A DNA stretch of 64,000 bases, from contig OZ242214.1 of NCBI GenBank assembly GCA_965206595.1, positions 2,656,001-2,720,000 of the forward strand, written 5' to 3'. Shown piece by piece: positions 26,760 through 50,249 of this stretch. Position 1 is the first letter of the stretch; each line of letters starts with the position of its first letter. A program made the position numbers and the translations under genes. The notes under the pieces were generated by a model. It was not told the origin of the DNA and ran no database searches. It saw only the letters and a program-made list of their open reading frames with translations. Source of the stretch: Candidatus Latescibacterota bacterium. GTDB lineage: Bacteria > Latescibacterota > UBA2968 > UBA8231.

Positions 26760-28450
26760 TCAGCCGCCGCCAATCGTAAACTGCCGTAACGGAATCGACC
26801 TGTAACGCTTGTCGCCTTCCGCGATTTCAATCGACTGGTCCATCGGCACATCAGAGAAGGTCTGAGTCAAATCAGACGTGGGCCAGTACACTTCGATCGA
26901 CTCGATCCGTTCAGCTTTTCCTAGACCAATGTTCTGACGCAGCGGATTGCACCCGAAGCTGCCGCCACTGTTGACGTATCGGTAAATCGATCGCTCGCCG
27001 CTGTCTTCGACGATCCTGACGTGAATACGTGCACCGATCGCACAACGGTTTGATTGCCGACCCGTAAGTTTGACTGTGATCCAGTGGTGGTTGAACCCTG
27101 GATTCTCGAACAGCGCGTCGTGATAATGGTCACCTGGCAATTGCCCGCCAGTCTGAACGTAGAGGTCCTGGTCTCCATCATTGTCGATGTCGGCGAAGCT
27201 GACTCCATGCCCCTTCTGGAGGTGTCCGAACCCGCCTGCCATTGTGACGTTGGCAAACCGCTCACCCCCCTGACTGACGTACATGACATTTGGCCGCAAT
27301 TCCGAGTATGGGACGTCACCGGTCGCGAGATAGAAATCGAGCCAGCCATCGCCGTTTACGTCGCCAAAGTTTGCACCCATTGGATTCGTTGCATAGGTGA
27401 TCTTTCGTTCAATCGCTTCGTAAACAAAGCCGCCTTTCCCATCACCGTGATATAAGGCGGGCAGCCCGAATCCAATCTTCATCGGCGGCCCCCCCGCTCC
27501 GGACGATCTAACGCTAAACGTGACAACTCCATCATCATACGATCGGGCCGCAATAGGACTGTATGAAGACATAGGACTGTATGAAGACAATGACTCGATT
27601 GCGACGGGACCCATACTGCTACCGACGTACAGATCCAGGGCGCCATCGTTGTTGAAGTCCCAGAACCAAGAGGCCCATCCGTCCTTCGGCTTCGTGACAT
27701 TCATGGCCTCGGCCACATTCGTGAACGTGCCGTTCTGATTGTTGTGGTATAGACCGTGGCGGTCGCGGGGATAATCTCCACAAGCGAACAAGTCCGGATA
27801 ACGGTCGTTGTCGTAGTCACCCCAGACCACGGCCATAGTAAAACGACTGTCGTCAACACCGGCGGCGGCGGCCACATCGGTAAATGTCTCGTCACCGTTA
27901 TTGCGAAACAGCTGCGACGGAATCTCAAAACCATCGCGCGCTTCGTTTCCAATGAACAGATCCAGGTCGCCGTCGTTGTCGTAATCCGCCCAGCTGGCTG
28001 TCTTCGTCGGATAGTGAACTTCGCCCAGCCCCGCCTGGAATGTGACGTCAGTAAACGTAAGGTTGCCATTGTTCCGCAGCAGCGAATTCGGATGTCGGCC
28101 AGCGGGGCCCAGCCACGCGCCGCGCAGGATCAGGACGTCCAGATTGCCGTCGTTGTTATAGTCCGCCTGGACCACGTTCAGTCCGCCGTAGAGACCCGTC
28201 AGGCCGGCATCATCACTCAGGTCCGTGAACGTTCCATCGCGGTTGTTATGAAAAAATCGACACGGCAACGTTGGATCGGCGGTCGACACGAAGATGTCCA
28301 GGTAATCGTCGTTGTCGAAATCATCGACGATCGCGCCGCCCGCGGCATTCCAGGTGTTCAAATTCAGCTTGGGCGCCACATTCTCGAATCGAGGAAACTC
28401 AATCTCTGACTCGAAGAACTCAGTCGGTACGAGGTACTCCTTCGGGACCT
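26760..28450 (-). CDS. CRTAC1/ASPIC-UnbV FG-GAP repeat protein (C-terminal part, fused in frame to upstream MNT)
   Basis: Repeated DxNNDGxLD motifs, HLQKGHG, NRCAIGARI, SGGSFG and EVYWP. Confidence 0.85.
27553..27588. repeat. Perfect 18-bp in-frame tandem duplication (SSYSPM/SSYSPI)
   Basis: ATAGGACTGTATGAAGAC x2. Confidence 0.9.
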
Positions 28451-28739
28451 GGTCCGGGAGGTCGATGACGTCCACCTGCCGGTCGGTCGCCTCCTCCAGG
28501 GCATTCATCACCTCCAGGACGGCACGCGAACAGCCGCGGACCGCGACATCGACGTCGGATGAGCTGCGCCAGGCGCCGGGGGTTATGAGAGAACCCACGA
28601 TGTAGGCAGCCTCGATCCCATGCTTGCGGCGGATCCGCCGCAAGACCTCCTGCACCCGTTCCAGCAGTGCCTCCCGCTCCTGCTCCAGCTTCAGCCGCCG
28701 GCTCCTCAGGCCCTCGTCCAGTCTGTGCGTGTCGAACAT
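28451..28739 (-). CDS. Minimal nucleotidyltransferase (MNT antitoxin-like), stop lost by fusion
   Basis: GGAGG RBS; motifs YIVGSL, SDVDVAV and VDVIDL. Confidence 0.8.
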
Positions 28740-29095
28740 GGAACCTCCGGCAGATTCGCCTCGGTCGATCTCCACTTCCTTGGAATCTCAGGGGGTCGAG
28801 GGTCGGACTACAAGCTACTTGGCAGGTCGACCCCATGTGTGACAGGCAGGTTCACCTCCGCGGCCATCGTCCCCAAGTCCGAGCTTGATCTTTGGAGAGA
28901 TCGATCGCATTCCCCGCTCTATACTGGAAATGGTCGCCGGTCGGGTATGCCTGACAAGCTCGTGGAGAAGATCGTGGTCGAGTATCCAGGGGCAGATCCT
29001 GTATCGCTGAAGTTCTGAGACCCGCGGCTGCTCAGCCGATGTACGCCGGATTGGGAGGCCCTTCTGGCGGTCGTGCCCCGGTGGCGATCTGAGAA

Positions 29096-29710
29096 TCAAA
29101 CCGCAGCAATCATCTGCCCCAGTGCTGTAAACAACTCATCGCAGTGACCGCACCGTTTCATTGCCTTGTTCGCATCAATCCGTGCCAGCAGATCGCTCGC
29201 ATGCCTGATCTTGTGGTAGGGCCCCTTCTGCGTGCGCTCCGTCGCCTGGCTCAAGCGGCGTATCAAATTAACCTTTGACACTTTCTCGAGATTGGCCGCC
29301 CTCGGAAGGCCCTGGCCCCTGAAACCCTGCCCGTAGTAGCTTGCCAGAGTCTCCGGGTCAGCGACGATCCAAGCCTCCATCGACTGCACCATCAGGTGAA
29401 CGGCATCTTCGTTGGCAAAGCTCAGATCCCATTTGTCCCCGGATCGAAGGTGGTCCCGGGCAGACTGGCTCACCGGCGCCTCGGCGTCGACCAGAAGGAC
29501 ATTCACCACATCATTCCCGTTTATGACGGCATTTCGAAATCCTTGAAATGCCTCGTCGCGTGGGCCGCAACAGACCAGCTTCCAGCGTAGCACCTTGTTC
29601 CTGGCTGCCTCTTTGAGGGGCTGAAGAAACGAATCCATCCCCTGACGAAGAGCTGCCCGGTTTTCCTTGCCGACACCCCCGCCTTCCATGTAGATGGCGA
29701 TTCCGGTCAC
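29096..29710 (-). CDS. DUF4276 family protein
   Basis: Motifs IYMEGGG, LLVDAE, MVQSMEAWIVAD and YHKIRH; GTGA overlap with the ATPase. Confidence 0.82.
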   Translation of the reverse strand: MTGIAIYMEGGGVGKENRAALRQGMDSFLQPLKEAARNKVLRWKLVCCGPRDEAFQGFRNAVINGNDVVNVLLVDAEAPVSQSARDHLRSGDKWDLSFANEDAVHLMVQSMEAWIVADPETLASYYGQGFRGQGLPRAANLEKVSKVNLIRRLSQATERTQKGPYHKIRHASDLLARIDANKAMKRCGHCDELFTALGQMIAAV

Positions 29711-30888
29711 GGGTTGGCGCCAAGCTCCCCCATCCGCCAAAGGTCGCCAAGCCTGTATTCGTCCAGCCAATCGGCGAGCTTTTCGGGATCGAGGCGGCGC
29801 AGCACAGTGCCGGACCCTGGCCGCTCGCAGGCGACGATGGAGGCCGGCTGATGGGTCAGCGCCGACACAAAGGCATCGGAATGCGTCGTGACCACCAGCT
29901 GCATACGCCCGGAGGCTTCGACGACAAGGTCGGCGAGCAGCGCCACGGCATCGGGATGCAGTCCGAGCTCCGGTTCTTCCATGCAGACGAGCGAGGGCGG
30001 CGATGGGTTCAACAGGGTCGCCAGCATAGCAATAAATCGGATGGTGCCGTCAGACAGCCGGGTTGCGGGAATCGGGGTACTGAAGCCGGATTCGTGCAGG
30101 AAAAACTGCAAGGTCCCCCCGGAAATCGAGGTGGACATTCGTTCGAACCGGGGGAAAAAACGTTTCAGATGCTTGTTGAATACCGGACCAGCCTGGTGTT
30201 CAATCTGGTTGAGCACCAAGGCCAGATTGCTGCAGTCGGGAAGCAGCCATTTCTCCGGAAGATCCGCTCGTTGCGGCTGCCGCAACGCACCGTAACGGCC
30301 GAACGTCCACTCGCGGAACGTTTGGATTTCCTGAAACTGGAACCCTAGCCCGAATAGCTCTGGATAGATATCCGGATCCTTTCGCTGCGCGAGAACGGAT
30401 TGATTCAGCGAGTGCTCTTTCGACGGAACAGTTATCTCCTCGGTTGATCCACCCGGCGGTATCCTCCTGCGAATGTTGATTTCTGGGTGACCCTGCTGGA
30501 AGATGAAATAACAAGTTGGCTCTACTCCCTTGGGAGACCCTTCCTCGATTTCCTCCTGGATGATGTTGACAAAAGGTCCAATAGTGTTAAACGAGATGCG
30601 ATACCTCAACGGCTCGTCCGTCATCATATTCGGACCTGTTTCTACTTCTACAGTCGCAGGTGACGAACGTTCATCCCCTTTCCACAGCCACTCCTTCGCA
30701 CCGCCGCCGTCCCGGATCGCAGCGGCGAAGTCCGTCGGCGTGGCGCGCAGGAGCTCCAGCACCTCGATGAAGTTCGATTTCCCCGACGCATTCGGACCAA
30801 TAAGAACGTTCAATGGCTGCAGCTCGAAGAACTCCATATCGGGGGAAAACGACAGCAGCCCACCCATGCGAAGCCGTTGGATGAACAT
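29707..30888 (-). CDS. ABC/SMC-like ATPase (AAA_21 type)
   Basis: Motifs GPNASGKS, LSDGT, MEEPELGLHP and TTHSD; C-terminal LGDLWRMGELG. Confidence 0.9.
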   Translation of the reverse strand: MFIQRLRMGGLLSFSPDMEFFELQPLNVLIGPNASGKSNFIEVLELLRATPTDFAAAIRDGGGAKEWLWKGDERSSPATVEVETGPNMMTDEPLRYRISFNTIGPFVNIIQEEIEEGSPKGVEPTCYFIFQQGHPEINIRRRIPPGGSTEEITVPSKEHSLNQSVLAQRKDPDIYPELFGLGFQFQEIQTFREWTFGRYGALRQPQRADLPEKWLLPDCSNLALVLNQIEHQAGPVFNKHLKRFFPRFERMSTSISGGTLQFFLHESGFSTPIPATRLSDGTIRFIAMLATLLNPSPPSLVCMEEPELGLHPDAVALLADLVVEASGRMQLVVTTHSDAFVSALTHQPASIVACERPGSGTVLRRLDPEKLADWLDEYRLGDLWRMGELGANP

Positions 30889-30909: not shown

Positions 30910-32526
30910 TCAGGCATCGAGCACGCCGATGGTCGGACCGAAGCTGTCCTGGTACGCCTGCGCGTCGAGGCGGCAATCGATCAGCGTCCCGACCTCCGCG
31001 GCGAACGCCTCCCTCAGCGCTTCCCGAAGCCCCTCCGGGGTATCGACGGTCGCCCCGGCGAGTCCGCAGCACCTCGCCACCTCGGCGTAATCGACCCTCT
31101 GCAGCTGCAGCTTGTACTCCGGCATTCCGCGCGCCTTCTGCCGCCACTTCATGGTACCGAGGGCATCGTCGTTCAGGATAACCAGGGGCACCGCCACGCC
31201 GGCGCGCGCCAGGGTCTCCAGCTCGCCGAGCCGCATCAGCAGGCTGCCGTCGGCGCCCAGTCCCATCATCGGGGTCTCCGGGGCTGCCAGTTTCGCCCCG
31301 AGAATCGCCGGTATCGTCAGCCCCATGGTGCGCCCGCCGCTGGTGCCCCGGTAACTTGCCGGATCGTCGACCTTCCACAGGCGCTCGAGAATGGTGATGT
31401 AGATCCCGGTTTCCGAGAACAGCACCCCCCCGGGCGGCATCAGCTCCCTGGCGATCTCGATGATGTCTTGCGCCGCCAGCCGGGCGTGCGGGGGCCGCGC
31501 GAAGTGCGGCTCCACCGCGGCGTCGATCGCGGCCAGCTCGGCCTGGGAAAAGCCCTCCCCCGTTGTCGTCAGCTGCGCGATGGAGGCCTTGAGGTCGCCG
31601 TCCACTCTCACCTCCGGTTCGGGTGTGAAGGAGAGGTACCCGGGCCGGGCGACGAGCTCGCAGACCGGCAGTGGAGAGCTCCACGGAACGTGCGCCATCA
31701 TCGCGTCCGCCCCGGCGAAGAGCACGGCGTCGGCGCACTCGAGCACCTCCATTTCGACGGTGTTGGCCACCCAGCTCCCGGTCATCACTCCTGCCCAGCG
31801 GGGGTGGGACTCGGGAAAGGCGCCGCGGCCGTCCATCGTCGACAGCACCACCCCGCCGATGCGCTCGACCAGCTCGACCAGCTCCGGGGTGGCCCCGGCC
31901 CGGGTGACGTCCGCGCCGGCGACGACCGCTGGCTTGGCGGAGCGCTCGAGAAAGGCGCGGGCGGCTTCGAGGGAAGCGGCCTCAGCCTGCCCGTCGGTAC
32001 CGACCGGCAGAGGGGCAAGCGGTCCGTCGCAGTCGGCGGCTCCGAGGTCGGAAGGCAGGTCGAGGAGCACTGGCCCGGGGCGGCCGTCGAGCGCCAGAAA
32101 CGAGGCCTCGCGCAGCATCCCGGGCGCGGCATCGGGACTCAGGGTGCCGCTGTACTTGACCACCGAGCCGAACAGCTCCTCGTGGGCGCACTGCTGCACG
32201 AGCTCTCCCCGGGTCACCGTCGACGCGGAGGACTCGCACAGGCAGATGACCGGCGCCCGCTCGAAGTAGGCGTTGACGGCCCCGCCGGCGAGGTTTCCCG
32301 CGCCCACCCCCTTCACCGACAGCGCCAGCCCCGCGGTCTCCTTCATCAGGCCGTTGCAGGCCCCCGCTATCCCCGCGGCCGACTCGTGCGCCACGGAGAC
32401 GAACTCGACCCCGAGCCGGCGGCCGTACTCCATCAGGTCGAGAGGACAGCCACCCCCGGGAATCCCGAAGAAGTGGCGTATCCCCCTCTCCCGCGCTTCG
32501 CTGATGATCAGTTCCGCAAGTTTCAC
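30910..32526 (-). CDS. Thiamine pyrophosphate-dependent enzyme (acetolactate synthase-like)
   Basis: Motifs FGIPGG, HESAA, GRPGPVLLDLP and TPP motif ADGS..ILND; GTG start after GGAGG. Confidence 0.88.
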   Translation of the reverse strand: MKLAELIISEARERGIRHFFGIPGGGCPLDLMEYGRRLGVEFVSVAHESAAGIAGACNGLMKETAGLALSVKGVGAGNLAGGAVNAYFERAPVICLCESSASTVTRGELVQQCAHEELFGSVVKYSGTLSPDAAPGMLREASFLALDGRPGPVLLDLPSDLGAADCDGPLAPLPVGTDGQAEAASLEAARAFLERSAKPAVVAGADVTRAGATPELVELVERIGGVVLSTMDGRGAFPESHPRWAGVMTGSWVANTVEMEVLECADAVLFAGADAMMAHVPWSSPLPVCELVARPGYLSFTPEPEVRVDGDLKASIAQLTTTGEGFSQAELAAIDAAVEPHFARPPHARLAAQDIIEIARELMPPGGVLFSETGIYITILERLWKVDDPASYRGTSGGRTMGLTIPAILGAKLAAPETPMMGLGADGSLLMRLGELETLARAGVAVPLVILNDDALGTMKWRQKARGMPEYKLQLQRVDYAEVARCCGLAGATVDTPEGLREALREAFAAEVGTLIDCRLDAQAYQDSFGPTIGVLDA

Positions 32527-32652
32527 GGCCGCTTCGACCTCCTGTCGTCCGGACTCTTGAGTATCCCTTTGCGAACCGGTAGGTTCGCCCCGCCCCGGCC
32601 GGGGCGGAAGGCAGAATGTAGGATTGGAAGAAGGGGGATGTAACCTTTGGCG

Positions 32653-33258
32653 ATGGACCCTGACCCAGCGGGGCTGCGGGTGGGCAATGACGTCGTCTAC
32701 CGGCGCGACCCGCACATAGCCGCCCACCACCTGAAGCGGCGTTTCGTCGACCGGGTCTGCAGCGCCGGGGAGGCCGGCCGGGTGCGGGCGAGCCGGGAGC
32801 CCGGCCTTCTGCTGTGGTCGCTGTGGGCGGCGAAGGAGGCGGCCTACAAGGCGGTCGTAAAACTACGGCCCGGCACCCCGTTCGCGCACCGGCGCTTCGT
32901 CGTCGACGAGTCCCTCTCCGCGGTCCGCTACGAGGATCTGCAACTGTCGTTGGCGGTGGAAGCGAACGAGGAGCGGGTGCACGCGGTCGCCTGCACCGGT
33001 GAAGCCGACATCCTGTCGTCAGTGGAGCGGAAGGAAGACGGGGCGAGCCAGAAGGAAGCGGTCCGCGCCCTCGCTCTCGGGGCCGTGGCGGCGCGCTTCG
33101 ACCTGCCGCGAGACCGTCTCGATATCCTCCGCCGGCCGCTTGCCGAAGGCCGCCCCGGCCCTCCCGAGCTGCTCCTCGACGGCCTGGCAACCGGCGTCGA
33201 CATCAGCCTGTCGCACGACGGCCCGTTCGTCGCCTGTGCCGCGGTCTGCCGCGGCTAG
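32653..33258 (+). CDS. 4'-phosphopantetheinyl transferase
   Basis: Motifs [18 protein letters not shown] and ISLSHDG. Confidence 0.85.
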
Positions 33259-34343
33259 TGTCCTGTCGCAGAGATTCGTTCACAAAGTCTCTTGATTTTG
33301 GCGAGGATGGAATCCGCCGTAGCCGTCCAGACGAAAGGGTGTGCGTTGGCGTTCCATTTGGCCGTGTAGCGTTCGATTCGCTCGATGAGCTCCGACACCT
33401 TGCGGAACGAATCGCGCCGAACCGCCTGGCGGGTGAGGATATTGAACCAGATCTCCACCTGATTGAGCCACGAAGCATACGTGGGAGTGTAGTGAAGGTG
33501 AAATCGGGGACGCCGTGCCAGCCATCGCTTGACCTTGGCATGCTTATGCGTGGCGTAGTTGTCGACGACGAGATGAATATCGAGGTCAGCGGGCACGTTG
33601 GCCTCGATGTGGCGCAGGAACTGGAGGAACTCCTGGTGACGATGACGGGGCTTGCACTGGGTCATCACTTCCCCGGTGGCGATGTCCAGGGCGGCAAACA
33701 GGGTGGTGGTGCCGTGCCGCTTGTAGTCGTGCGTAATCCCTTCCACGTATCCCAGTCCCAGGGGCAGCATGGGCTGACTTCGTTCCAACGCCTGGATCTG
33801 GCTCTTCTCGTCCACGCACAGCACCAGGGCGTGCTCGGGGGGATTCAGGTATAAGCCGACGATATCCCGTACTTTGTCGACAAAGAAAGGATCGGTGGAA
33901 AGCTTGAAGCGCTTGTGTCGATGGGGCTGCAAACCATACGTGCGCCAAATGCGATGAACCGCGTCCTTGGTCAGGCCGGTTTCTTCGCCCATGGAGCGCA
34001 CCGACCACTGTGTTTCGTCTTTGGGCTTGGTCTTCAGGGTCTTGTATACCACCTCGGCTACCTGCTCGTCCGTGATCGATCGCGGCGCCCCTGAACGTAG
34101 TTCATCATACAAGCCATTGAGTCCGTTGTCGAGAAAACGCCGGCGCCATTTGCCCACCGTAGCTCGCGTCACACCCACCGCGGAAGCGACCGCTTCATTG
34201 GGCCAGCCATCGGCGGCCAGCAGCACCATCTCGGCTCGCCGCACCAATCCGTGGGGAAGACTTCGTGATTTGGCCATCGATTCCAGTCGTTCCCGGTCCG
34301 ACGGACTCAGCTCTAACGGCGTTAATGGACGCCCCGTCACCAT
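33255..34343 (-). CDS. IS630 transposase (intact)
   Basis: HTH; motifs [17 protein letters not shown] and SWLNQVE. Confidence 0.93.
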
Positions 34344-34426
34344 AGGTCTCTCCTTTCAGAAGGGGGATAAGGGAAACCTACGGCACTTTCAATTGTTTGT
34401 ACAGTTAATTACACGACATGACACTA
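33256..34426 (-). mobile_element. IS630-family insertion sequence
   Basis: IRs TAGTGTCCTGTCG and CGACATGACACTA; CTAG at both ends (TA duplication). Confidence 0.92.
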
Positions 34427-34433
34427 GTGCCTC

Positions 34434-35255
34434 TCAGTCCCTGGTCAGCCGCTCCCGCTCCAGACGCTCGATCTCGCCGAGCCGGGCAACTTCCTTCAGG
34501 ACCTTGCGTCCCACCTGCACCTGGTTGCGGAACAGCCTCGGGTCGACCCCGTCGAACTCCGCCATGTCGACCGGGTCCCCGTACACGACGATCACGGGCC
34601 GGGCGCGTCCGAAGTTCCGGCGCGCTTCCTCCGCCGGGTTGTCGCTCAGGCCGTTGATGAAAATCGGGATGACGATCGGGCGGGCGTGCAGGACGACGCG
34701 GCCGAACCCCGGCTCGGCAGGCAGCAGCTCGTAGGGATCTTCGTTCTTGTTGCGCGTTCCCTCCGGGTGGATGCCGACCAGGGTCCGCGGCGACTTCAGG
34801 CGCTCGGCGAGGAAGTCGAGCCCTGCCCGCGTCACCCCCCGCTTGTGGCGCGGCCGGAAGATCGGCGGGAACATCGACATGGTGCTGAAGGCGAGGTTGG
34901 AGAGGATCCCCGGCACCGTGTCGTACAGGAATGCCGAGCGCACCGGGAAGAAGAACTGGTCCCAGTGCACGACGTGTCGGTACAGGTAGCTGGCGATGAT
35001 GTACTGGTCGAAGTAGGTGCGGTGGTTGGAGGCGATCAGGACGCCCCGGTCGGGACGCAGGCCGACCACCTTGTCCATGCCGACGAGGTGGATGCGACGG
35101 CTGGTCAGCAGGGTGACGAAGTGCCGGTGGACGTTTCTGTTGATCCAGTGGGTGGCGGTGCGGAGGCGCGGGGATTCGTTGATCCAGCTCGCGAACGCCA
35201 GGGCCGTGCGCTCTACCCGGGTGAGGGTGGCCAGATCCTCGGGGGGTATCTCCAT
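34434..35255 (-). CDS. plsC: Lysophospholipid (1-acyl-sn-G3P) acyltransferase, PlsC family
   Basis: NHRTYFD (HX4D) and HPEGTR motifs. Confidence 0.85.
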   Translation of the reverse strand: MEIPPEDLATLTRVERTALAFASWINESPRLRTATHWINRNVHRHFVTLLTSRRIHLVGMDKVVGLRPDRGVLIASNHRTYFDQYIIASYLYRHVVHWDQFFFPVRSAFLYDTVPGILSNLAFSTMSMFPPIFRPRHKRGVTRAGLDFLAERLKSPRTLVGIHPEGTRNKNEDPYELLPAEPGFGRVVLHARPIVIPIFINGLSDNPAEEARRNFGRARPVIVVYGDPVDMAEFDGVDPRLFRNQVQVGRKVLKEVARLGEIERLERERLTRD

Positions 35256-35312
35256 GAAGTCACGGCAGAACGGCGGTGAGGCGGGGGGGAGTCCGCCTCG
35301 CGGCTTCGGGTA

Positions 35313-35558
35313 TCAGCTGGTCGTGGCGATCAGGTTGACGGCATCCCCGACGGTCGTCACCTGGTCGGCGGCGTCGTCGGAGATCTCGATGTCGAAGCCG
35401 TCCTCGATTTCGAGAACGATGTCGACCAGCCTCGCGGAGTTGACCTCGAGATCTTCCTGAATCGAGGTCTCCATGGTGACGTTCGAGAGCGCTTCCTCGT
35501 TCTTGGCGAACGGGGTCAGTATCTCGACGATTCTTTTGAAAACTTCCTGCGTGTCCAT
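35313..35558 (-). CDS. Acyl carrier protein
   Basis: Acidic 81-aa protein, DLEVNSARLVDIVLEIEDGFDIEISD..TVGD. Confidence 0.9.
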   Translation of the reverse strand: MDTQEVFKRIVEILTPFAKNEEALSNVTMETSIQEDLEVNSARLVDIVLEIEDGFDIEISDDAADQVTTVGDAVNLIATTS

Positions 35559-35708
35559 TGCAGCGATCCTTTTATCCGTTTCTTTGGCGGTGACGGCCGG
35601 ACCGCGACAGAGCCGATCCGGTTCTGCATCGCTTTCGGTGCGGCCGGCATCGCCGGCAAATTTTGCGGCCTTTCCCAAGCGGGTATCACCGCAGGCCCAC
35701 ATATAAAG

Positions 35709-36989
35709 TTACGGGATTTTTCGGAAAATCACACAGCCGTTCACGTCTCCGAAGCCGAAGCTGGCCTTGGCGACCGCCTTCAGGCCGGGGAGGTCGACGC
35801 ACTCGTGGGGTATGCGGCCGGCGTAGGCTTCGAGATCGGGGTGCAGGTCTTCGCAGTTGATGGAGGGGTGAACGAAGCCGTGGTGGAGCTCGAGGACCGA
35901 GGCGACGCACTCGATCCCGCCGGCGGCCCCGAGGGCGTGTCCTATCAGCGACTTGGTCGAATGGATGTAGGGCATGTCCGCAGGGTCGAGCCGCAGCGCC
36001 CGTGACCAGTTCCCGACCTCGTGCGGGTCGGCGAAGGTGGCGGTGAGGTGGCCGTTGATCGCGCCGATCTCGCCGGGGTCGAGCCCCGACATCTCCAGGG
36101 CGCCGCGCAGGCAGCGCTCGACGCTGTTGGGGTTGGGGGCGGTCATGCTGCCCCCTTGGCGATGGCCGCCGCAGTTGAGGAAGACGCCGGCCACCTCGGC
36201 GTAGATGCGGGCGCCCCGCTCGCGGGCGGACTCCATCTCTTCGAGCATCAGCATGCCGGCCCCCGACCCGGGGATGAAGCCGGCGGCGCTGGCGCTCATC
36301 GGCCGCGACGCCGCTTCCGGGTCGTCGTTGCTGTTGCGGTTGAGGACGCGCATGGCGTCGAACCCGGCCCATATATAATGGCTGTGGCCCTCCGAGCCCC
36401 CGGCGAGCATGCGCCTGGCCAGCCCGTCCCTGATGCGGTAGTAGGCCTGCACGACCGCCTCGGTGCCGGTGTTGCAGGCGCTCGAGTTGGTGCTCACCTG
36501 GTTGCCGAGGGCGAGCTTGCCGGCGATGCGGGCGCTGTTGCCGCTCGACATGATCTGCTCGACCATGGTACTGCCGAGCCGCCTCACCCGCCCCGCCTGC
36601 GTCTTCGGCGCCAGGGTTTCGGCGATGGTGTCGATGCCCCCGATCCCGGTGCCGATGATGCCCCCGGTGTCCCAGTCGGGCTCGTCGCCGCCTCCGCGCA
36701 TCTCCAGGCCGGCGTCGTTCCAAGCGTCGATGGCGGCGATCGCCGCGAACACCATGTTGGCGTTCATCGCGAACAGCTCTTCCTCGCTCAGGTAGGCGGC
36801 CTGCAGCTCCTCGACGCCGTCGGGGATGCCGCCGACCTGGCAGCCGAACTTCAGCTCGGCGAGCTGCTCGTGAAAGCCGATCCCGCTGCGGCCCCGGCGC
36901 AGGGCCTCGGCGAACTGCTCGAGACCGTGGCCGTTGGGCGCCAGCACTCCCAGGCCGGTGACAACGACCCTGGTGTCATTTCCGTTCAC
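35709..36989 (-). CDS. fabF: Beta-ketoacyl-ACP synthase (FabF/FabB type)
   Basis: Motifs RVVVTGLG, SACNTG (Cys), INGHLT, KSLIGHALGAAG and SFGFG. Confidence 0.88.
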   Translation of the reverse strand: MNGNDTRVVVTGLGVLAPNGHGLEQFAEALRRGRSGIGFHEQLAELKFGCQVGGIPDGVEELQAAYLSEEELFAMNANMVFAAIAAIDAWNDAGLEMRGGGDEPDWDTGGIIGTGIGGIDTIAETLAPKTQAGRVRRLGSTMVEQIMSSGNSARIAGKLALGNQVSTNSSACNTGTEAVVQAYYRIRDGLARRMLAGGSEGHSHYIWAGFDAMRVLNRNSNDDPEAASRPMSASAAGFIPGSGAGMLMLEEMESARERGARIYAEVAGVFLNCGGHRQGGSMTAPNPNSVERCLRGALEMSGLDPGEIGAINGHLTATFADPHEVGNWSRALRLDPADMPYIHSTKSLIGHALGAAGGIECVASVLELHHGFVHPSINCEDLHPDLEAYAGRIPHECVDLPGLKAVAKASFGFGDVNGCVIFRKIP

Positions 36990-37434
36990 GGGGCACTCCC
37001 ATTCCCGAAACGGTCCCGCCGGCGACCCAGGTGCCGTCGGCGAGCCTCAGTTCCACTTTCGATTTCAGTTTCCGGCGCCTCCAGAACAGCTTCTCCGCGG
37101 TGATGCGCACCGTGGCTCCGGGCGGGACTACCCGGGCGAACTCCACCTCGGCGTCGGTGAACAGGCTGATGGTCCCGGCGACCTCCTCCTCGGGAACCTC
37201 CATGCCGAGCAGGTGGATCCCCAAAGCGACCAGCCCGGTCTGGCACATCGCCTCGATCAGGATCACTCCCGGGGTCACCGGGTTGCCGGGGAAGTGGCCC
37301 TCGTAAAAAGTCTCGTCCTCGCGGAAGGTGTACTCGCCGACCGCGGTCGACTCCCCGAGCTCGACGAGGCGGTCGATGAAGCGGAACGGCCGCTGCTGCG
37401 GGATCAGGGCAAGCACTTGCTCCGGGGTCAGCAT
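36976..37434 (-). CDS. fabZ: 3-hydroxyacyl-ACP dehydratase FabZ-like
   Basis: Motifs PQQRPFRFID and GHFPGNPVTPGVILIEAMCQ. Confidence 0.85.
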   Translation of the reverse strand: MLTPEQVLALIPQQRPFRFIDRLVELGESTAVGEYTFREDETFYEGHFPGNPVTPGVILIEAMCQTGLVALGIHLLGMEVPEEEVAGTISLFTDAEVEFARVVPPGATVRITAEKLFWRRRKLKSKVELRLADGTWVAGGTVSGMGVPRERK

Positions 37435-38027
37435 CAGGCGCTCCGGTCCATGATGCCGCCGACGCTGTTCGGCGAGCGCTCCGGGTAGTCCGGGTAGCCG
37501 ATCCCGAGGAACGTGCCGACCTTGGCGTCCTTGACGGTGTAGATGTGCTCGCCGTCGACGAGCACCCGGGCGCTGCCGATCGCCACCGCGGAACCGGACT
37601 CCTTCAGCTGCGAGAAGCGGCGGATGTCGACCTCGTAGCGCACCACCTCGTTGTAGGGCCGGATCTGGCCGGCGAACTCGACCTCCTTGCAGCCGAGGGC
37701 CCGCCCCGAGCCGGGGGCGCCGTTGGCGGCTATGTAGAGCCCGACGAGCTGCCAGATCGCGTCGACTCCGAGGCACCCCGGCTGCACCGGGTCGCCGCGA
37801 AAATGACAGTGAAAGAACCAGTCTGCGACGCCGATGTCCTGTTCCCCGACGATGCGCCCGCGCGGCCCCCGGCGGTGCAGCTCGACGACGCGCGAGATCA
37901 TCAGCATCGGCGGCGCCGGCAGGCGGATGAATTCGTCCGGCGGATCCTCGACCAGGGTGCCCTGCGAGATGCCGAGCAGCTCCTCGGAGGTGAAGTGGCC
38001 GCGCTCTGTGAACTCGGAGTAGAGCAT
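37434..38027 (-). CDS. fabA: 3-hydroxydecanoyl-ACP dehydratase/isomerase
   Basis: Motifs LPAPPMLM and WFFHCHFRGDPVQPGCLGVDAIWQL (His/Asp dyad of FabA); GRALG. Confidence 0.9.
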   Translation of the reverse strand: MLYSEFTERGHFTSEELLGISQGTLVEDPPDEFIRLPAPPMLMISRVVELHRRGPRGRIVGEQDIGVADWFFHCHFRGDPVQPGCLGVDAIWQLVGLYIAANGAPGSGRALGCKEVEFAGQIRPYNEVVRYEVDIRRFSQLKESGSAVAIGSARVLVDGEHIYTVKDAKVGTFLGIGYPDYPERSPNSVGGIMDRSA

Positions 38028-38030
38028 GGC

Positions 38031-39026
38031 TCAGGAGACCTCGATGCGCAGGCTCGACCACGTCAGCCCGGAACCGACGACGGCGAGGATGAGGCTGTCG
38101 CCGGAGGCCAGCTCGTCCCAGCGCTGGGAGAGGACAACCGGGGCCCCGGCGGCGCCGGTGTTGCCGAACTCGGCGACGTTGTGCCAGTGGGACTCGCCAT
38201 CGAGGCCGGCCCGCCTGGCGACCCCCTGCAGCATCAGCAGGTTGGCCTGGTGGCCTATGAACCGCAGGGTCCCGCCCGCGGCCTCGGCGTGCCCGCAAGC
38301 CTCGGGAAGCATCTCCCTGACCAGGGAGATCGTCGTCTTGATGGCGAAGCGCTGCACCGCGTTCCCCTCCTGGAAGAAGTGGCCGTGGCGCGGGATGCGG
38401 ACCGCGTCCCAGCGCTTGGAGTCGGCCCCCAAAGTGCTGGCGACCACCCGGACCGGGGCCGCCTCCCGGGAGGAGAGGACCGCGGCGCTGGTGCCGTCCC
38501 CCCAGAGCACGGCGTTGGCGCGGTCGGAGTAGTCGATCGCCCGCGTCGTGTTCTCGGGGTTGACGACGAGGACGAAGCGCGGCAGCGCCTCCATCGAGCT
38601 CAGCATGTGCAGCTGGGCCCCGAAGCTGCAGCAGGCGGAGTTGATGTCGATCCCGGGGGCGTCGATATCCGCGGCCGCGGCGATGCGGCTGGCGTCGGCC
38701 GGGATCGCCATGTCGGGATAGCACCCCCCGGATACCACCAGGCCGATATCGGCGGCGGCGACGCCGGCGCGCTCGAGAGCCATGGCCGCGGCCCGGGCCG
38801 CGGTGGCGGCGTTGTCGTACAGGGCCGCCTCCTCGGCGCCGCGGGGGTCCCGGTTGTGCGTGCTGCGGATGTAGTCGAGGGGCAGCACCGTGCGCCGCCG
38901 GCGAATCCCCACGCGCTCGAGGATCCACTCGTCGCTGGTACCGATGTCGAGGTCCTCGAGAAAGCCGTTGTCGATGACGTTCTCGGGATGGAAGTGACCC
39001 ATGCCGTGGAGGTATAGGGAAGCCAA
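38031..39026 (-). CDS. fabH: Beta-ketoacyl-ACP synthase III
   Basis: Cys-His-Asn triad: SACCSF, HQAN and FGNTGAA. Confidence 0.88.
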   Translation of the reverse strand: MASLYLHGMGHFHPENVIDNGFLEDLDIGTSDEWILERVGIRRRRTVLPLDYIRSTHNRDPRGAEEAALYDNAATAARAAAMALERAGVAAADIGLVVSGGCYPDMAIPADASRIAAAADIDAPGIDINSACCSFGAQLHMLSSMEALPRFVLVVNPENTTRAIDYSDRANAVLWGDGTSAAVLSSREAAPVRVVASTLGADSKRWDAVRIPRHGHFFQEGNAVQRFAIKTTISLVREMLPEACGHAEAAGGTLRFIGHQANLLMLQGVARRAGLDGESHWHNVAEFGNTGAAGAPVVLSQRWDELASGDSLILAVVGSGLTWSSLRIEVS

Positions 39027-39029
39027 CGA

Positions 39030-39989
39030 TTAGCCCGCGATATGCTCGCCGCCGTCGGCACGGACGATGGTGCCGTTGATCCAGCGCGCCTCGTCCGTGC
39101 TCAGCAGGAAGATGACGTCCGCCACCTCCGCGGCCGTGGTCAGCCGCCCGAAGGGATTGCGCAGGGCCGCGGCGGCTTTCAGGTGGTCGCTGCCGGGAAT
39201 CAGCCGCAGGGCGGCCGAGTCGGTCACTCCCGCCTGAACGACGTTGGAGCGGATTCCGTGGGGGGCGTACTCCGCGGCGATGGCGCGGCTCACCGACTCG
39301 AGCGCCACCTTGGCCGCGGCCACCGCGGCGTACCCGCGCCAGGCGACCTCGTTCCCCTCGCTCGTCATCGCCAGCACGCGCGCGTCCCCGGCGAACAGTC
39401 CCGCGCCCGCGGCGAACACCTCCCGGGTCCAGGTCGCCAGGCTCGTGCCCATGCTGTACACGGTGCGCTCGAAATCCTCGTCCTCGAGCACGGCCTTCGC
39501 GTCGTACGGGGGCGGGTTGGCGAGATGGACGAGGCTCCTGGCATCGTCGCTCGAGAAAGCCGCATTCACGGCCTCGGCGAGCCGCTCCGGGTCGACGCCT
39601 AGCTTTTCGGCCAGCAGCCCGCGGTCCCGGGCCCCGGTTTCTCCGAAGGACTCGGTGAGGGGCGCCATGAGCCGCAGGTTGCCGAAGGCTATCGAGTGCA
39701 GCATGGTGCGCACGCGGCCGCGGTCGCCGAGGCGCTCCACGAGGGCGCCGATCACGGTCTGGCGCCCTTCCTGCGACAGGGCGTCGAGGTTGAAGGAGAG
39801 GAAGTCCCCCTCGAAGCGGCGGATCGCATCGAACTCCGGCTCGATCCCCTTCATGGCGCCGCGCCGGTCGCGGTGGACGACGGCGACACTCATCCCGTGG
39901 CGGGCGAGCTTCCTGGCGGCGGCGAGGCCGAAGCCGCTGGAGCCCCCGAGGATCAGCGCCCACTGGTCGGTGTCGAAACGAATGCTCAA
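39030..39989 (-). CDS. SDR enoyl-ACP reductase (FabI/FabL-like)
   Basis: Motifs GGSSGFG, Y-X6-K (YAAVAAAK), NPFGRL and DGG. Confidence 0.78.
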   Translation of the reverse strand: MSIRFDTDQWALILGGSSGFGLAAARKLARHGMSVAVVHRDRRGAMKGIEPEFDAIRRFEGDFLSFNLDALSQEGRQTVIGALVERLGDRGRVRTMLHSIAFGNLRLMAPLTESFGETGARDRGLLAEKLGVDPERLAEAVNAAFSSDDARSLVHLANPPPYDAKAVLEDEDFERTVYSMGTSLATWTREVFAAGAGLFAGDARVLAMTSEGNEVAWRGYAAVAAAKVALESVSRAIAAEYAPHGIRSNVVQAGVTDSAALRLIPGSDHLKAAAALRNPFGRLTTAAEVADVIFLLSTDEARWINGTIVRADGGEHIAG

Positions 39990-40189
39990 AACGGGTTGAG
40001 ATTCTCTCTGGCAGGTGTGAATTGAAAGGGAGAAATCTGTGGGACCAGGGGGCGACTGTCAAAGCCCGGATCGCCTGTCCTCGTCTGCTTCCACCGGTGG
40101 CCGGACATTGCACCCTCGCCCGGCATGCCGGAATATTGATCCGCTTTTCCGCTGCCGCCGGAGGCAGTGGTCGCCCTTGGGAAGAGACC

Positions 40190-41197
40190 ATGAAAATCAC
40201 CCGCATCGAGCAGTTCATCACCGCGGTCCCCCACATACCCGAAATCGAGAAGAGCCGCCCGGGAGACTACCGCGAGCGGCCGATCCCCATCATCAGGGTG
40301 CATACCGACGAGGGGATTCACGGCATCGGCGAAGGGGGCCGCGGCGACAGGTTGGAGAACGTGGAAGAGTGGCTCGGGGTCGATCCGCTGAGCCTCAACC
40401 TGACGACGATGGGGGGCGCCATCGCCATGGCGATGTTCGACATCGTCGGCAAGGCCCTCGGGGTGCCGGCCAACAAGCTGATGGGGAGCAGACACTGGGA
40501 CGAGGTCCCGGTCGGCTGGTGGTCCCCCCCGCTCGAGCCGGCCGAGTTCGCCGCCATGGCCGAGACCGGTGTCCGGCTCGGCTACAAGACCCACAAGCTC
40601 AAGGCGCGGCCCTGGAACATCGTCGAGACCGTCGAGCTGATGACCGCGGCCGCGGGTCCCGACTACGGCATCATCGTCGATCCCAACATGACCTTCGAAA
40701 CCCTGCAGGCGACCCTGCGCATCGCCGGCAAGCTGGAGCGCTACAACATCCAGGCATTCGAAGACCCCTTCCCACGGCTTCCCGGGTGGCACCAGTACCG
40801 CGACTTCCGCCGCCACTCCACCATCCCGCTGGCACCCCACATCGCCGATCCCCAGCTGATCATGAGCGCCATCCGGGCGGAGGCGGCCGACATGTTCAAC
40901 ACCGCCGGCGAGGTCGAGCGCGCCAAGGGGAACGCCGCCATCGCCGAGGCCGCGGGCATGCCGGTCTGGCTGCAGGTGGTCGGCCTCGGACTGGGGGTCT
41001 CGGGAGCCTACGGAACGCACGTGCACTCGGTGATCCCGAACGCGACGATCCCTTCCGACAGCCTGCACTTCACGCGCGAGAACGACCTGATCTCCGGCGC
41101 CCTGACGCCAGAGAACGGGCTCGTCAAGGTCCCCGACACCCCCGGCCTGGGGGTCGAGCTCGACATGGACGCAGTCGAGAAGTACCGCGTCGGCTAA
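40190..41197 (+). CDS. Mandelate racemase/muconate lactonizing (enolase superfamily) enzyme
   Basis: Motifs TDEGIHGIGE, KLK, VDPN, FEDP and PGLGVELD. Confidence 0.88.
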   Translation: MKITRIEQFITAVPHIPEIEKSRPGDYRERPIPIIRVHTDEGIHGIGEGGRGDRLENVEEWLGVDPLSLNLTTMGGAIAMAMFDIVGKALGVPANKLMGSRHWDEVPVGWWSPPLEPAEFAAMAETGVRLGYKTHKLKARPWNIVETVELMTAAAGPDYGIIVDPNMTFETLQATLRIAGKLERYNIQAFEDPFPRLPGWHQYRDFRRHSTIPLAPHIADPQLIMSAIRAEAADMFNTAGEVERAKGNAAIAEAAGMPVWLQVVGLGLGVSGAYGTHVHSVIPNATIPSDSLHFTRENDLISGALTPENGLVKVPDTPGLGVELDMDAVEKYRVG

Positions 41198-44204: not shown

Positions 44205-44386
44205 GGAACCGCCAGACGGAGCCAGGGGCAGCAATTCAGTGGCAGGGGAATTCCGTCCCTGACTGGGCGGCTTTGGCCTCTCCAGAGAAACCGCGGTTCA
44301 ATCCTCCCCGGAACATCGGCGCCAGTTCTACCCCCAGTACGTTCTCGGCGCCCGCGGTTTTCAGATGCCCTCGCAAGGATGGATTT
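44172..44386. repeat. 29-bp direct repeat (44172-44200 and 44358-44386)
   Basis: TTTTCAGATGCCCTCGC(G/A)A(A/G)GATGGATTT, 2 mismatches. Confidence 0.85.
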
Positions 44387-46052
44387 TTCTGGCACCCCCT
44401 GCGGGGCGAACTCGGGGGCCGTTCAGCAATCTTCCCAACCAGGTGTAGCGGACCAGGAACCGGTAGGCCAGCAACAGCAGGCCGGTGACTGCTGCAATCA
44501 CCAGGGCGAACTTCAGCGCGGAGGGAAGCGGCCAGTCCCGCACCGCCAATTGGGCGCCGATGATCAGCGGCAGATGCGTCACGTACAGCCAGTACGACGA
44601 ATCCGACACATAGCGAATCGTACTGTTTTCGCGGGCGCAGAGTTTGCGAACCAGGCCGATGCAGGCGAAGGCCATCGTCCAGGGATAGACGGCCTGCAAC
44701 GCCACCGCCGCCGCCCGGGCCGTTGCCGGGTCGAATATCTCATGGCGGAATCCGAATGCACCCGTTGAGAATTCGAGGCCGAGCGGAAAGAGGATCAACA
44801 GCCCCGGGGGAAGCGCCAGCCACCACCATTTCCCCACCCTGCCGTCCCGGTCGTCGCAGTCGAAATACAGGGCGCCGAAGGCGAAAAAGAGGGCGTAGAA
44901 AAGCATGACGTGCGGCATGGGCAGCAGACCCAGGGAGGTATCCGGCCCGAAGCCGGGCACCACCAGTCCCATGAGCGACTGCGGGATCATCGTCAGGGGG
45001 ATCAACCAGAGAAACCGAACCGGCGACAGAACCAGCCACTCCGGGGACCTCGGCCATTTCATCCAGCCGACGAGGCCGGCGCTCAGTGCATAAAGGAGGA
45101 CCAGCCACCAGAGGAACCACAGGAACCACAAGTGGTGGAACAGCGGGGCTGCAAAGACCGGTGCCCCCATGGCTTTGGTAAACTCGAGGGCCGCCGATTG
45201 CTCCTTTGCCTTGCCTGTTTCTTCCCGATCGTCCCCAGTGGATGATCGTTCGAGCATTCCGGCGATCTGGACCCGGCCGGCCTCGACTTCTTCTTGGTCG
45301 ATCTCAATCTGCAACAAGCCTGCCAGGTACCGGGTCAGTTCCCAGCCCGCCTCCAGGGCACCCCGGGGCGTATCGCCGTTGTGGTTCTTCGCCTCGGGAT
45401 CCGCCCCATGCTGAAGCAACAGTTGGGCGACTTCCGCACGTCCCAGGAAAGCGGCCGCGTGCAGGGGCGTTGCGCCATCCCTGGCGCGGCCGTTGACCGC
45501 GGCACCGTTTTCAAGCAGCCACTCGACCGCTTCCGCCCGGCCGGTTAAGCCCGCCCAAACCAGGGGAGTCAGCCCGGACGCCGGGTCCATCCCATCGACA
45601 TCGGCCCCGTCCCGCAGGTGCCGTTCCATGGCGGCGAGGTCCCCGTTCCGGGCGGCGCTCCAGATACTGTCTTTTGCGGCCTTGTCCGCGTCGACTTCGA
45701 ATGCAGATGCAATAGCCCAGCCGCTGATCCAGTTGACCGCGGGAACGATGGTCACCAGCCCGAGCAGGAACGGCAGCAACACGCGGCGAAAGCGGTGGGA
45801 GAGCATGGATCTCAGGCCGCGGCGGCGCCAGAGCATGGCGGTGAAGAAGCCGCTCAGCAGGAAGAACACCGGCATGCGGAAGCCGTGGATCGCAGCGAAC
45901 AGCAGCCAGTAGAACCCGCTCTGCCGCTCATCCTGCACCGGCCAGGGAAACGGAGTGAAGGACAACCCCGCGTGCAGGACGATGCCGAGCAGCATGACCG
46001 CGGCGCGCAGGGCGTCGAGGTCGCAGCGGCGAGGGTGGGGGGCGCTGGTCAT
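44361..46052 (-). CDS. Acyltransferase_3 (OpgC/MdoC-like) membrane protein with ankyrin-repeat insertion
   Basis: Motifs LDALRA, FRMPVFFLLSG, HLWFL and SYWLYVTH; ankyrin motifs GLTPL, GATPLHAA and GDTP. Confidence 0.88.
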   Translation of the reverse strand: MTSAPHPRRCDLDALRAAVMLLGIVLHAGLSFTPFPWPVQDERQSGFYWLLFAAIHGFRMPVFFLLSGFFTAMLWRRRGLRSMLSHRFRRVLLPFLLGLVTIVPAVNWISGWAIASAFEVDADKAAKDSIWSAARNGDLAAMERHLRDGADVDGMDPASGLTPLVWAGLTGRAEAVEWLLENGAAVNGRARDGATPLHAAAFLGRAEVAQLLLQHGADPEAKNHNGDTPRGALEAGWELTRYLAGLLQIEIDQEEVEAGRVQIAGMLERSSTGDDREETGKAKEQSAALEFTKAMGAPVFAAPLFHHLWFLWFLWWLVLLYALSAGLVGWMKWPRSPEWLVLSPVRFLWLIPLTMIPQSLMGLVVPGFGPDTSLGLLPMPHVMLFYALFFAFGALYFDCDDRDGRVGKWWWLALPPGLLILFPLGLEFSTGAFGFRHEIFDPATARAAAVALQAVYPWTMAFACIGLVRKLCARENSTIRYVSDSSYWLYVTHLPLIIGAQLAVRDWPLPSALKFALVIAAVTGLLLLAYRFLVRYTWLGRLLNGPRVRPAGGARKIHPCEGI

Positions 46053-46164
46053 GAGGGGCGGTCCGGGTGGAGGAGCGGTCCACTTGTGCCTGAGCAGACA
46101 GCACGGGGCGCTCCGCTTCCGTCGATTCGATGCATTCCCCCTGCGGCAAGCCGCGGCCCCTCCC

Positions 46165-50215: not shown

Positions 50216-50249
50216 CTCGTCTCGACCTCCGTCGGCGTCGGCAGCTCCG

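Follow-up and report, generated by a model that had tools for sequence, protein, structure and literature searches.

A FabA-containing accessory type II fatty acid synthesis cassette with its own acyl carrier protein in a Candidatus Latescibacterota genome

The DNA analyzed here, referred to as the window, is a stretch of 64,000 nt from contig OZ242214.1 (positions 2,656,001-2,720,000) of a Candidatus Latescibacterota bacterium (GCA_965206595.1), and it carries a compact cassette of genes for type II fatty acid synthesis (FAS II). Pfam and NCBIfam profile searches identified seven densely packed genes on the minus strand (39989..34434, in window coordinates), in the order enoyl reductase, FabH, FabA, FabZ, ketoacyl synthase, acyl carrier protein (ACP) and PF01553 acyltransferase. 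The first gene (39030..39989) encodes a candidate enoyl-ACP reductase of 319 residues with a TTG start, a FabI/FabL-like member of the short-chain dehydrogenase/reductase (SDR) family (PF13561, 124.5 bits). It is followed by a FabH-like ketoacyl-ACP synthase III (KAS III; 38031..39026, 331 residues, PF08541 and PF08545), FabA (37434..38027, 197 residues, NF003509 at 191.8 bits), a FabZ-like dehydratase (36976..37434, 152 residues, PF07977 at 57.8 bits) and a ketoacyl-ACP synthase of the KAS I/II class (KS; 35709..36989, 426 residues, PF00109 and PF02801). The dedicated ACP (35313..35558, PF00550) has 81 residues from MDTQEV; its longest open reading frame (ORF) reaches 35702, and 35558 is the probable start. 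The operon ends with an acyltransferase of the glycerol-3-phosphate acyltransferase/lysophospholipid acyltransferase (GPAT/LPLAT) superfamily (34434..35255, 273 residues, PF01553 at 56.2 bits). Convergent on the operon, the plus strand encodes a phosphopantetheinyl transferase (PPTase) of the ACPS superfamily (32647..33258, first ATG at 32653, 203 residues, PF01648 at 37.3 bits). A first-pass annotation of the region 32653..39989 had named these eight genes, and all of them were found where it placed them. Its sequence details were borne out as well: the reductase has the Y-x6-K spacing (YAAVAAAK) and no Y-x3-K, the ACP carries the VNSA attachment motif (VNSAR when extended by one residue), and no FabD or FabG was detected within the cassette by the profile searches. 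What it overlooked within that span is an IS630-family element on the minus strand (33258..34424), which is not a part of the cassette.

The layout is that of a single operon, because the genes abut or overlap. The stop codon of FabA and the start codon of FabZ share one base (TGATG), FabZ and the KS overlap by 14 nt, and the remaining intergenic gaps measure 3-60 nt. The GC content at third codon positions (GC3) is 0.87-0.94 over the eight cassette genes, like that of other window genes, with 0.92-0.94 for the seven operon genes and 0.92 for the reductase; the GC content of the window ranges from 0.54 to 0.71 in 2-kb bins. A promoter and terminator scan of 32400..40500 returned two promoter-like sites, both intragenic, and terminator-like sites at chance level.

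The IS630 element is 1167 bp long and is delimited by terminal inverted repeats and by TA dinucleotides at 33256-57 and 34425-26, with a boundary good to 1-2 nt. Its transposase scores 274.7 bits against NF033545, above the cut-off of 100. Within the element, the transposase ORF (34343..33255, minus strand) runs on without a stop; the TAG that ends it consists of the duplicated target TA and a single base of flanking sequence. The insertion site corresponds to a 36-bp gap between the stop codons of the acyltransferase and the PPTase in the nearest relative (locus L002), which itself lacks the element. Twelve copies in the genome, this one included, encode an identical 362-residue transposase; one further copy is 99.7% identical, and many are 93-95% identical or fragmentary. 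In addition, a contig from a DNA run joins 33254 to 34424 and thus represents an empty-site allele, at a depth of 8 versus ~26. The absence of the element from L002, the identical copies and the empty-site allele together establish that the insertion is recent; it disrupts no gene and leaves both stop codons intact. The 12 identical-transposase copies also mark this IS630 element as a highly active one.

An insertion sequence inside the cluster, together with the lack of FabD-like and FabG-like genes that are present in fuller relatives, could be taken as the signature of a decaying or non-functional remnant of horizontal transfer disrupted by IS630. We consider this very improbable. None of the eight ORFs is broken and the catalytic residues are in place, the insertion is intergenic with both stops kept, L002 carries the same genes at 97.7% DNA identity over 6.8 kb, and GC3 is 0.87-0.94. 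Contigs from RNA libraries also fall on the genes: in two studies, contigs with 95-99% identity to the window map to each of the seven operon genes and span the FabZ/KS and FabA/FabH junctions. The RNA runs were picked via the cassette itself and DNA carry-over is possible, and the contigs cover neither the PPTase nor most of the flanks, a pattern that, coming from cassette-chosen runs, says nothing on expression. The contigs are thus a weak hint that the cassette is expressed. RNA-library runs with the label sponge metagenome contain pieces of the cassette region at 95-99% identity.

The recurrence of the gene set was examined by a FabA-seeded scan with one genome per species, which gave 252 relatives, and the best 80 (58-99% FabA identity) were taken. 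Genes were counted at a locus when tblastn matched them within 6.5 kb of FabA at E 1e-8 or better, with half or more of the query covered. Many of the 80 loci end at contig edges, and 46 have at least 5 kb on both sides of FabA and are called untruncated below. Other cassette genes stand beside FabA in 79 of the 80 loci (the exception being L056), which places the gene set far beyond chance. FabZ was found in 76 of the 80 loci (45 of the 46 untruncated ones), the KS in 73 (45), the ACP in 71 (45), the PPTase in 66 (44), FabH in 72 (43), the acyltransferase in 58 (40) and the reductase in 64 (37). FabD-like genes occur in 29 loci (21 of the untruncated) and FabG-like matches in 17 (10), some of which may be unrelated SDRs. 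The PPTase lies beside the ACP or the acyltransferase in 44 of the 46 untruncated loci. The fullest arrangement, seen in five loci (L045, L065, L070, L074 and L075), comprises ten genes in the order FabD-like, reductase, FabH, FabA, FabG-like, FabZ, KS, ACP, acyltransferase and PPTase. Outside the cassette, the neighbouring genes vary between loci. A gene for a thiamine pyrophosphate (TPP) enzyme next to the cassette in the window (30910..32730) was considered as a further member and rejected, since only L002 and L003, probably of the same genus, have it in that position. Rather than a peculiarity of a single genome, the cassette is a widespread, patchily distributed module.

The cassette is accessory, because a full canonical FAS II is encoded elsewhere in the genome (7.05 Mb, one contig, 92.9% complete). 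A housekeeping fabH-fabD-fabG-acpP-fabF locus lies at C1 ~6.803-6.808 Mb, and each of its tested enzymes exceeds the corresponding NCBIfam cut-off; its acpP, with a DSLD site, was identified by sequence only. The housekeeping fabZ belongs to a bamA-skp-fabZ cluster, and FabI, at 4.685 Mb, reaches 283.5 bits, with no other SDR of the genome exceeding 85.6. A search for FabK gave only weak matches of 29 bits or less, and one for FabV (PF12241) gave no match in this genome and none in the control genomes either. Housekeeping FabF was likewise present in all five other cassette-bearing genomes tested, at 50-76% identity to the FabF of this genome. A separate housekeeping fab locus, as expected for the accessory cassette proposed in the first pass, therefore exists, and the cassette genes are not the only fab genes. 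The accompanying description of the cassette as self-contained and insulated holds in part: the cassette has its own ACP, PPTase and acyltransferase and the only FabA (single-copy by tblastn), and it lacks FabD and FabG in a genome with a single FabD. At E 1e-5 or better, the genome contains no paralogue of FabA, the cassette ACP, the acyltransferase or the PPTase, and three PF01553 acyltransferases are encoded in all.

All components except FabA score under the curated NCBIfam cut-offs of their housekeeping families, whereas the housekeeping copies of the same genome exceed theirs. For the reductase, the best NCBIfam match is FabL at 93.1 bits (cut-off 328), the FabI models give 63-67 bits (cut-offs 299-337), and the closest matches in the PDB are mixed SDRs. 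The Y-x6-K spacing, which marks FabI and FabL as Y-x3-K does the ketoreductases, is kept in 64 of 65 cassette SDR matches. FabH scores 178.5 bits against NF006829 (cut-off 249), and its Cys/His/Asn triad is kept in all 73 cassette copies. At the position of E. coli Phe87, a residue that limits primer size, these 73 proteins have Ile (51), Ser (18), Thr (2), Asn (1) or Leu (1), with Ile in the window, whereas the housekeeping FabH of the same genome has Phe. The idea that the cassette serves as a straight-chain source for a branched-chain host finds no support here, on account of this housekeeping Phe. FabA itself exceeds the NF003509 cut-off of 124 and falls below that of the stricter TIGR01749 (160.9 versus 238 bits). 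It aligns end to end with the E. coli and P. aeruginosa FabA structures. Its His75 and Asp89 fall on the catalytic pair of the E. coli enzyme, His and Asp, an Asp being found instead of the Glu of FabZ, and 75 of 167 residues aligned with that enzyme are identical. The FabZ-like protein (NF000582, 72.4 bits versus a cut-off of 113) has a GHFP...PGV..IE motif whose His and Glu align with those of the housekeeping FabZ. The KS reaches 285 bits against TIGR03150 (fabF; cut-off 494), a model that gives 607 bits for the genome's own housekeeping FabF, and 235 bits against the FabB model NF005935 (cut-off 630). Its Cys172, His314, His351 and Lys346 align with the catalytic residues of E. coli FabF and FabB, and it is 36% identical to the FabF of its own genome, 34% to E. 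coli FabB and 32% to E. coli FabF.

The ACP matches the PF00550 fold family and attains 57.8 bits with its best ACP model, against a cut-off of 66. Around the attachment serine it reads DLEVNSARLVD where AcpP reads DLGADSLDTVE, so that N-S-A-R replaces the canonical D-S-L-D. Of 71 cassette ACPs, 69 have the NSAR site and the other two read SSSR, a pattern that holds down to 47% overall identity. Judging from AcpS-ACP structures, the changes from Asp to Asn and from Asp to Arg at the acidic positions flanking the serine should, we presume, weaken recognition by AcpS. The NSAR site thus probably makes the cassette ACP a poor substrate for the housekeeping AcpS. The cassette PPTase, for its part, carries the motifs GxD, W..AAKE...K and SLSH.G, which are conserved in 64 cassette PPTases. 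Its best match in a PDB sequence search has an E value of 0.46, and for that reason it is left untyped between the AcpS and Sfp types. The genome has two PPTases in all, the second being AcpS-like. The gene for this AcpS-like protein lies in the window as well (4329..4652, minus strand), ~28 kb from the cassette PPTase, with a full-length profile match to PF01648 at 62 bits.

The dedicated carrier bears on a simpler account, in which the cassette is a general anaerobic pathway of the FabA type that gives the organism its unsaturated fatty acids, with the cassette enzymes working on the common AcpP pool and the additional ACP, PPTase and acyltransferase being redundant passengers that bring no insulation. 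The sole FabA of the genome lies here, the cassette must share FabD and FabG with the host anyway, and modules of FabA-type enzyme, KS and reductase are known, among them S. meliloti fabA-fabB-fabI2 (PMC11616126) and E. faecalis fabI-fabN-fabO (PMC9671860). Passengers, however, would be lost, yet the ACP is retained in 45, the PPTase in 44 and the acyltransferase in 40 of the 46 untruncated loci. The NSAR site in 69 of 71 copies argues in the same direction, and a mere unsaturation branch would need neither its own FabH nor its own FabZ. We regard this account as unlikely.

The acyltransferase contains the HX4D and PEGTR blocks (NHRTYFD and HPEGTR), and N77, H78, D83, E165 and R168 are invariant among 31 sequences. 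Its AlphaFold2 model has a mean predicted local distance difference test (pLDDT) score of 86.5. The top fold match of this model is the plastid GPAT (1iuq/1k30; E 1.4e-6, query-normalised TM score 0.57, 15% sequence identity), followed by PlsC (5kym), LpxM, PatA and GPAT1. No match was obtained by sequence search of the PDB, and in the ESM Atlas only PF01553 clusters were matched, most often from Myxococcota. Two acyltransferase subfamilies of ~18-20% mutual identity occur in the cassettes, both with the two motif blocks; their position and strand vary, and one or the other is almost always near. As modelled, the protein is a GPAT/LPLAT-fold enzyme.

From this gene content, and from the catalytic residues, conservation, synteny, accessory status and patchy distribution observed, we propose with middling confidence that the cassette is a portable and partly orthogonal accessory FAS II that would make cis-unsaturated chains on its own ACP for a membrane glycerolipid. 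In the mechanism we envisage, the cassette PPTase would attach the phosphopantetheine arm to the cassette ACP. Host FabD would load malonate and a host FabG-type enzyme would reduce the ketone here, steps for which fuller cassettes bring their own copies. The cassette FabH would prime chains on this ACP and the cassette KS would extend them, with FabZ and FabA dehydrating the intermediates. A second activity of FabA would convert a medium-chain trans-2 intermediate into its cis-3 isomer, to be elongated by the co-evolved KS, giving cis-monounsaturated chains without oxygen. The matched FabI/FabL-type reductase would close each saturated cycle. Finally, the acyltransferase would shift the acyl group from the cassette ACP to glycerol-phosphate or a lysolipid, yielding a membrane glycerolipid. 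The isomerase activity, the chain type, the orthogonality of the ACP and the acceptor in this scheme are predictions from sequence.

Several observations weigh against this proposal. The trans-2 to cis-3 isomerase activity of FabA is presumed and would not be legible in the sequence; what separates FabA from FabZ is the shape of the tunnel and not the catalytic residues. The KS, by its scores and placement, is a KAS I/II enzyme but neither FabB nor FabF. We call it so because it falls below both cut-offs and because the cassette KSs form a separate clade in a KS tree, with a branch length of 4.26 that carries a long-branch warning and with few references, the outgroups being four only (E. coli FabB, E. 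coli FabF and two KSs of this genome). A FabH devoid of Phe87 may use a primer other than acetyl-CoA, and hence start a special chain. The acyltransferase reaches only 19 bits against TIGR00530 (PlsC), with a cut-off of 103, and this shortfall, together with the likeness of its predicted fold to LpxM and PatA, might point to an acceptor other than a glycerolipid. In a sublineage of five loci (L010, L013, L014, L016 and L017) the cassette has no reductase gene. In L016, the only one of these that was examined, DnaG lies upstream of FabH, with ~690 bp without assignment. Two fatty-acid desaturase genes are present in the genome, so that a shortage of unsaturated chains for the cassette to fill is not apparent. 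Lastly, insulation is incomplete, because the cassette here relies on host FabD and FabG.

Instead of bulk membrane fatty acids, the cassette could make a specialised lipid or lipid-like metabolite, with an unusual primer or with a non-glycerolipid acceptor such as an aminolipid, glycolipid, lipid A-like molecule or signal, the ACP serving to segregate intermediates from primary metabolism as in aryl-polyene, NodF/NodE or AcpXL systems. This would accord with a dedicated ACP that has a near-invariant non-canonical site and its own PPTase, with the Ile, Ser or Thr at the Phe87 position of the cassette FabHs and with the scores of all components other than FabA under the housekeeping-family cut-offs. 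It would accord equally with an acyltransferase that is far from PlsC, finds no PDB sequence match and resembles LpxM and PatA in fold as well, and with a patchy accessory distribution typical of specialised metabolism. Set against this, the enzyme set is that of a plain E. coli-type FAS II for saturated and monounsaturated chains, and no methyltransferase, oxygenase, thioesterase, ligase, glycosyltransferase or exporter is found in the cassette or conserved beside it. FabA is 58-99% identical across the sampled phyla, unusually conservative for specialised metabolism, and in fold the acyltransferase comes closest to a glycerol-3-phosphate acyltransferase. A specialised product is therefore possible in our view, and rather doubtful.

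The distribution of the cassette is relevant to its proposed portability. Carriers bear the record titles Candidatus Latescibacterota, Polyangiaceae, Myxococcales, Kofleriaceae, Gemmatimonadota, Spirochaetes and Oligoflexia, and the labels of metagenome-assembled genomes (MAGs) among them may be imprecise. The closest carriers are L002 and L003, with 99% and 94% FabA identity, both titled Candidatus Latescibacterota, and a cultured carrier is Labilithrix luteola DSM 27648. A FabA above the cut-off was found in 13 of 153 genomes of the same phylum as the window (all 3 of genus g1, all 8 of g17 and 2 of 7 of g11), in 44 of 301 sampled Myxococcota, the phylum of Labilithrix, and in 2 of 201 sampled Gemmatimonadota, the phylum of a Longimicrobiales carrier that is counted among the two. 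In genomes G100 and G101 of genus g11, which belongs to the same family, FabA scores 249-261 bits versus ~190-200 for the cassette type; these sequences suggest a second, more canonical FabA lineage in the phylum.

Sequence identities differ between the cassette and the housekeeping genes. The cassette KS is 72% identical to those of both Labilithrix and a Myxococcaceae-labelled MAG, and FabA is 75-76% identical, whereas the housekeeping FabF identity is 50-52% to Labilithrix and 55% to the MAG. For the Gemmatimonadota and Spirochaetales carriers, the same comparison gives a small gap (58% versus 62% and 50% versus 62%). The patchy distribution and the excess similarity to Myxococcota argue that the cassette reached its present lineage by horizontal transfer. 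More tentatively than the proposal of an accessory FAS II for a membrane glycerolipid, one may picture a ten-gene ancestral 'plug-and-play' FAS that would move between phyla as one piece, with an ACP that its NSAR site would make invisible to the host AcpS and poorly used by the host FAS. The GPAT-like transferase of the cassette would direct this second, separate acyl-ACP pool to a defined position or class of membrane lipid, and the recipient would gain oxygen-independent unsaturated lipids irrespective of its native fatty-acid chemistry.

Among known systems with a carrier of their own, the rhizobial acpXL-fabZXL-fabF2XL-fabF1XL-adhA2XL-lpxXL cluster follows the same logic as the cassette, in that a dedicated ACP, elongation enzymes and an acyltransferase install the product in one lipid. 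The AcpXL cluster takes a pre-formed chain and lengthens it to a very long hydroxy acid, which an LpxL-family transferase places on lipid A. The cassette, by comparison, has a FabH to start chains de novo as well as FabA, a reductase and a PPTase, and the family of its transferase is PF01553, not PF03279. In aryl-polyene clusters, and in the myxobacterial polyunsaturated fatty acid (PUFA) synthase Pfa3 with its acylglycerolphosphate acyltransferase (AGPAT) domain, the carrier-bound chain is passed straight to a co-encoded lysophospholipid-type acyltransferase. The cassette differs from these in having no pair of KS and chain length factor, second ACP, ammonia-lyase, CoA-ligase, exporter or type I megasynthase. 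Among the listed NCBIfam matches, the only one to an aryl-polyene or Pfa model is a weak match to the PfaA KS (64 bits, cut-off 1010). To our knowledge, none of these systems in which a dedicated ACP leads to a dedicated acyltransferase (AcpXL/LpxXL, aryl polyenes and Pfa3) has a FabA, and their transferase or synthase is of another type. The plastid GPAT (1iuq/1k30), the best fold match of the cassette acyltransferase, is the soluble enzyme of the prokaryotic pathway with acyl-ACP as donor; the cassette protein is shorter (273 residues versus ~360).

With the E. coli FabA/FabB pathway, the cassette shares the same chemistry set of FabA with His and Asp, FabZ, FabH, a KAS I/II enzyme with Cys-His-His and a Y-x6-K reductase. 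It departs from that pathway in being one operon with a dedicated NSAR ACP, a PPTase and an acyltransferase, and in a KS that is neither FabB nor FabF. Its hosts differ too, being Latescibacterota-labelled, Myxococcota, Gemmatimonadota and Spirochaetota, and in the present genome it coexists with a complete housekeeping FAS II. The E. faecalis and S. meliloti modules use, as far as we know, the general ACP, and we know of no FabH, FabZ, ACP, PPTase or acyltransferase of their own. Like the cassette, they co-encode a dehydratase/isomerase, a KS and an enoyl reductase (PMC9671860, PMC11616126). A 2009 paper states that genes for homologues of FabA and FabB exist in alpha- and gamma-proteobacteria only (PMC2700279), in agreement with the first-pass statement that FabA is mainly known from these two classes. 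Anaerobic desaturation by FabA has so far been seen as an alpha- and gamma-proteobacterial process with a single ACP pool; the cassette FabA occurs in at least four other phylum-level groups. A description of this cassette was not found in open-access papers (PMC) and bioRxiv preprints, subscription journals being outside this scope. What stands out here is FabA outside proteobacteria in an accessory FAS II, a near-invariant NSAR ACP and cross-phylum mobility; a FAS II with a private ACP and a transferase is already known in kind.

If the ACP pools are separate, the cassette would be a natural orthogonal type II FAS, and if the proposed function is true, one transfer would bring oxygen-independent unsaturated lipids to a lineage. 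Fatty-acid biomarkers of Myxococcota, Gemmatimonadota and sponge-associated bacteria could then need rereading. The cassette would also supply a compact set of parts (ACP, PPTase, KS, FabA and acyltransferase) for insulated lipid engineering, and it can be put to the test in Labilithrix luteola DSM 27648, a carrier in culture.

Other features of the window were noted in passing. Adjoining the TPP-enzyme gene that flanks the cassette, a candidate two-gene anti-phage system HEC-01 (29096..30888, minus strand) consists of an AAA_21 ATPase as HEC-01A (487.8 bits) and a DUF4276 protein as HEC-01B (217.3 bits), and lies in a stretch of lower GC (0.59-0.61). A DDE_Tnp_1_4 transposase (13785..15316, minus strand) is split in two ORFs of 348 and 182 residues and is probably a frameshifted or decaying insertion sequence. 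A weak neutral/alkaline ceramidase-like ORF is present at 48758..50299 (27 bits, below the cut-off). FG-GAP/ASPIC-UnbV repeat proteins are encoded at 26760..28775 and 55216..57267, and an Acyl_transf_3 membrane acyltransferase with inserted ankyrin repeats at 44361..46364 (minus strand).

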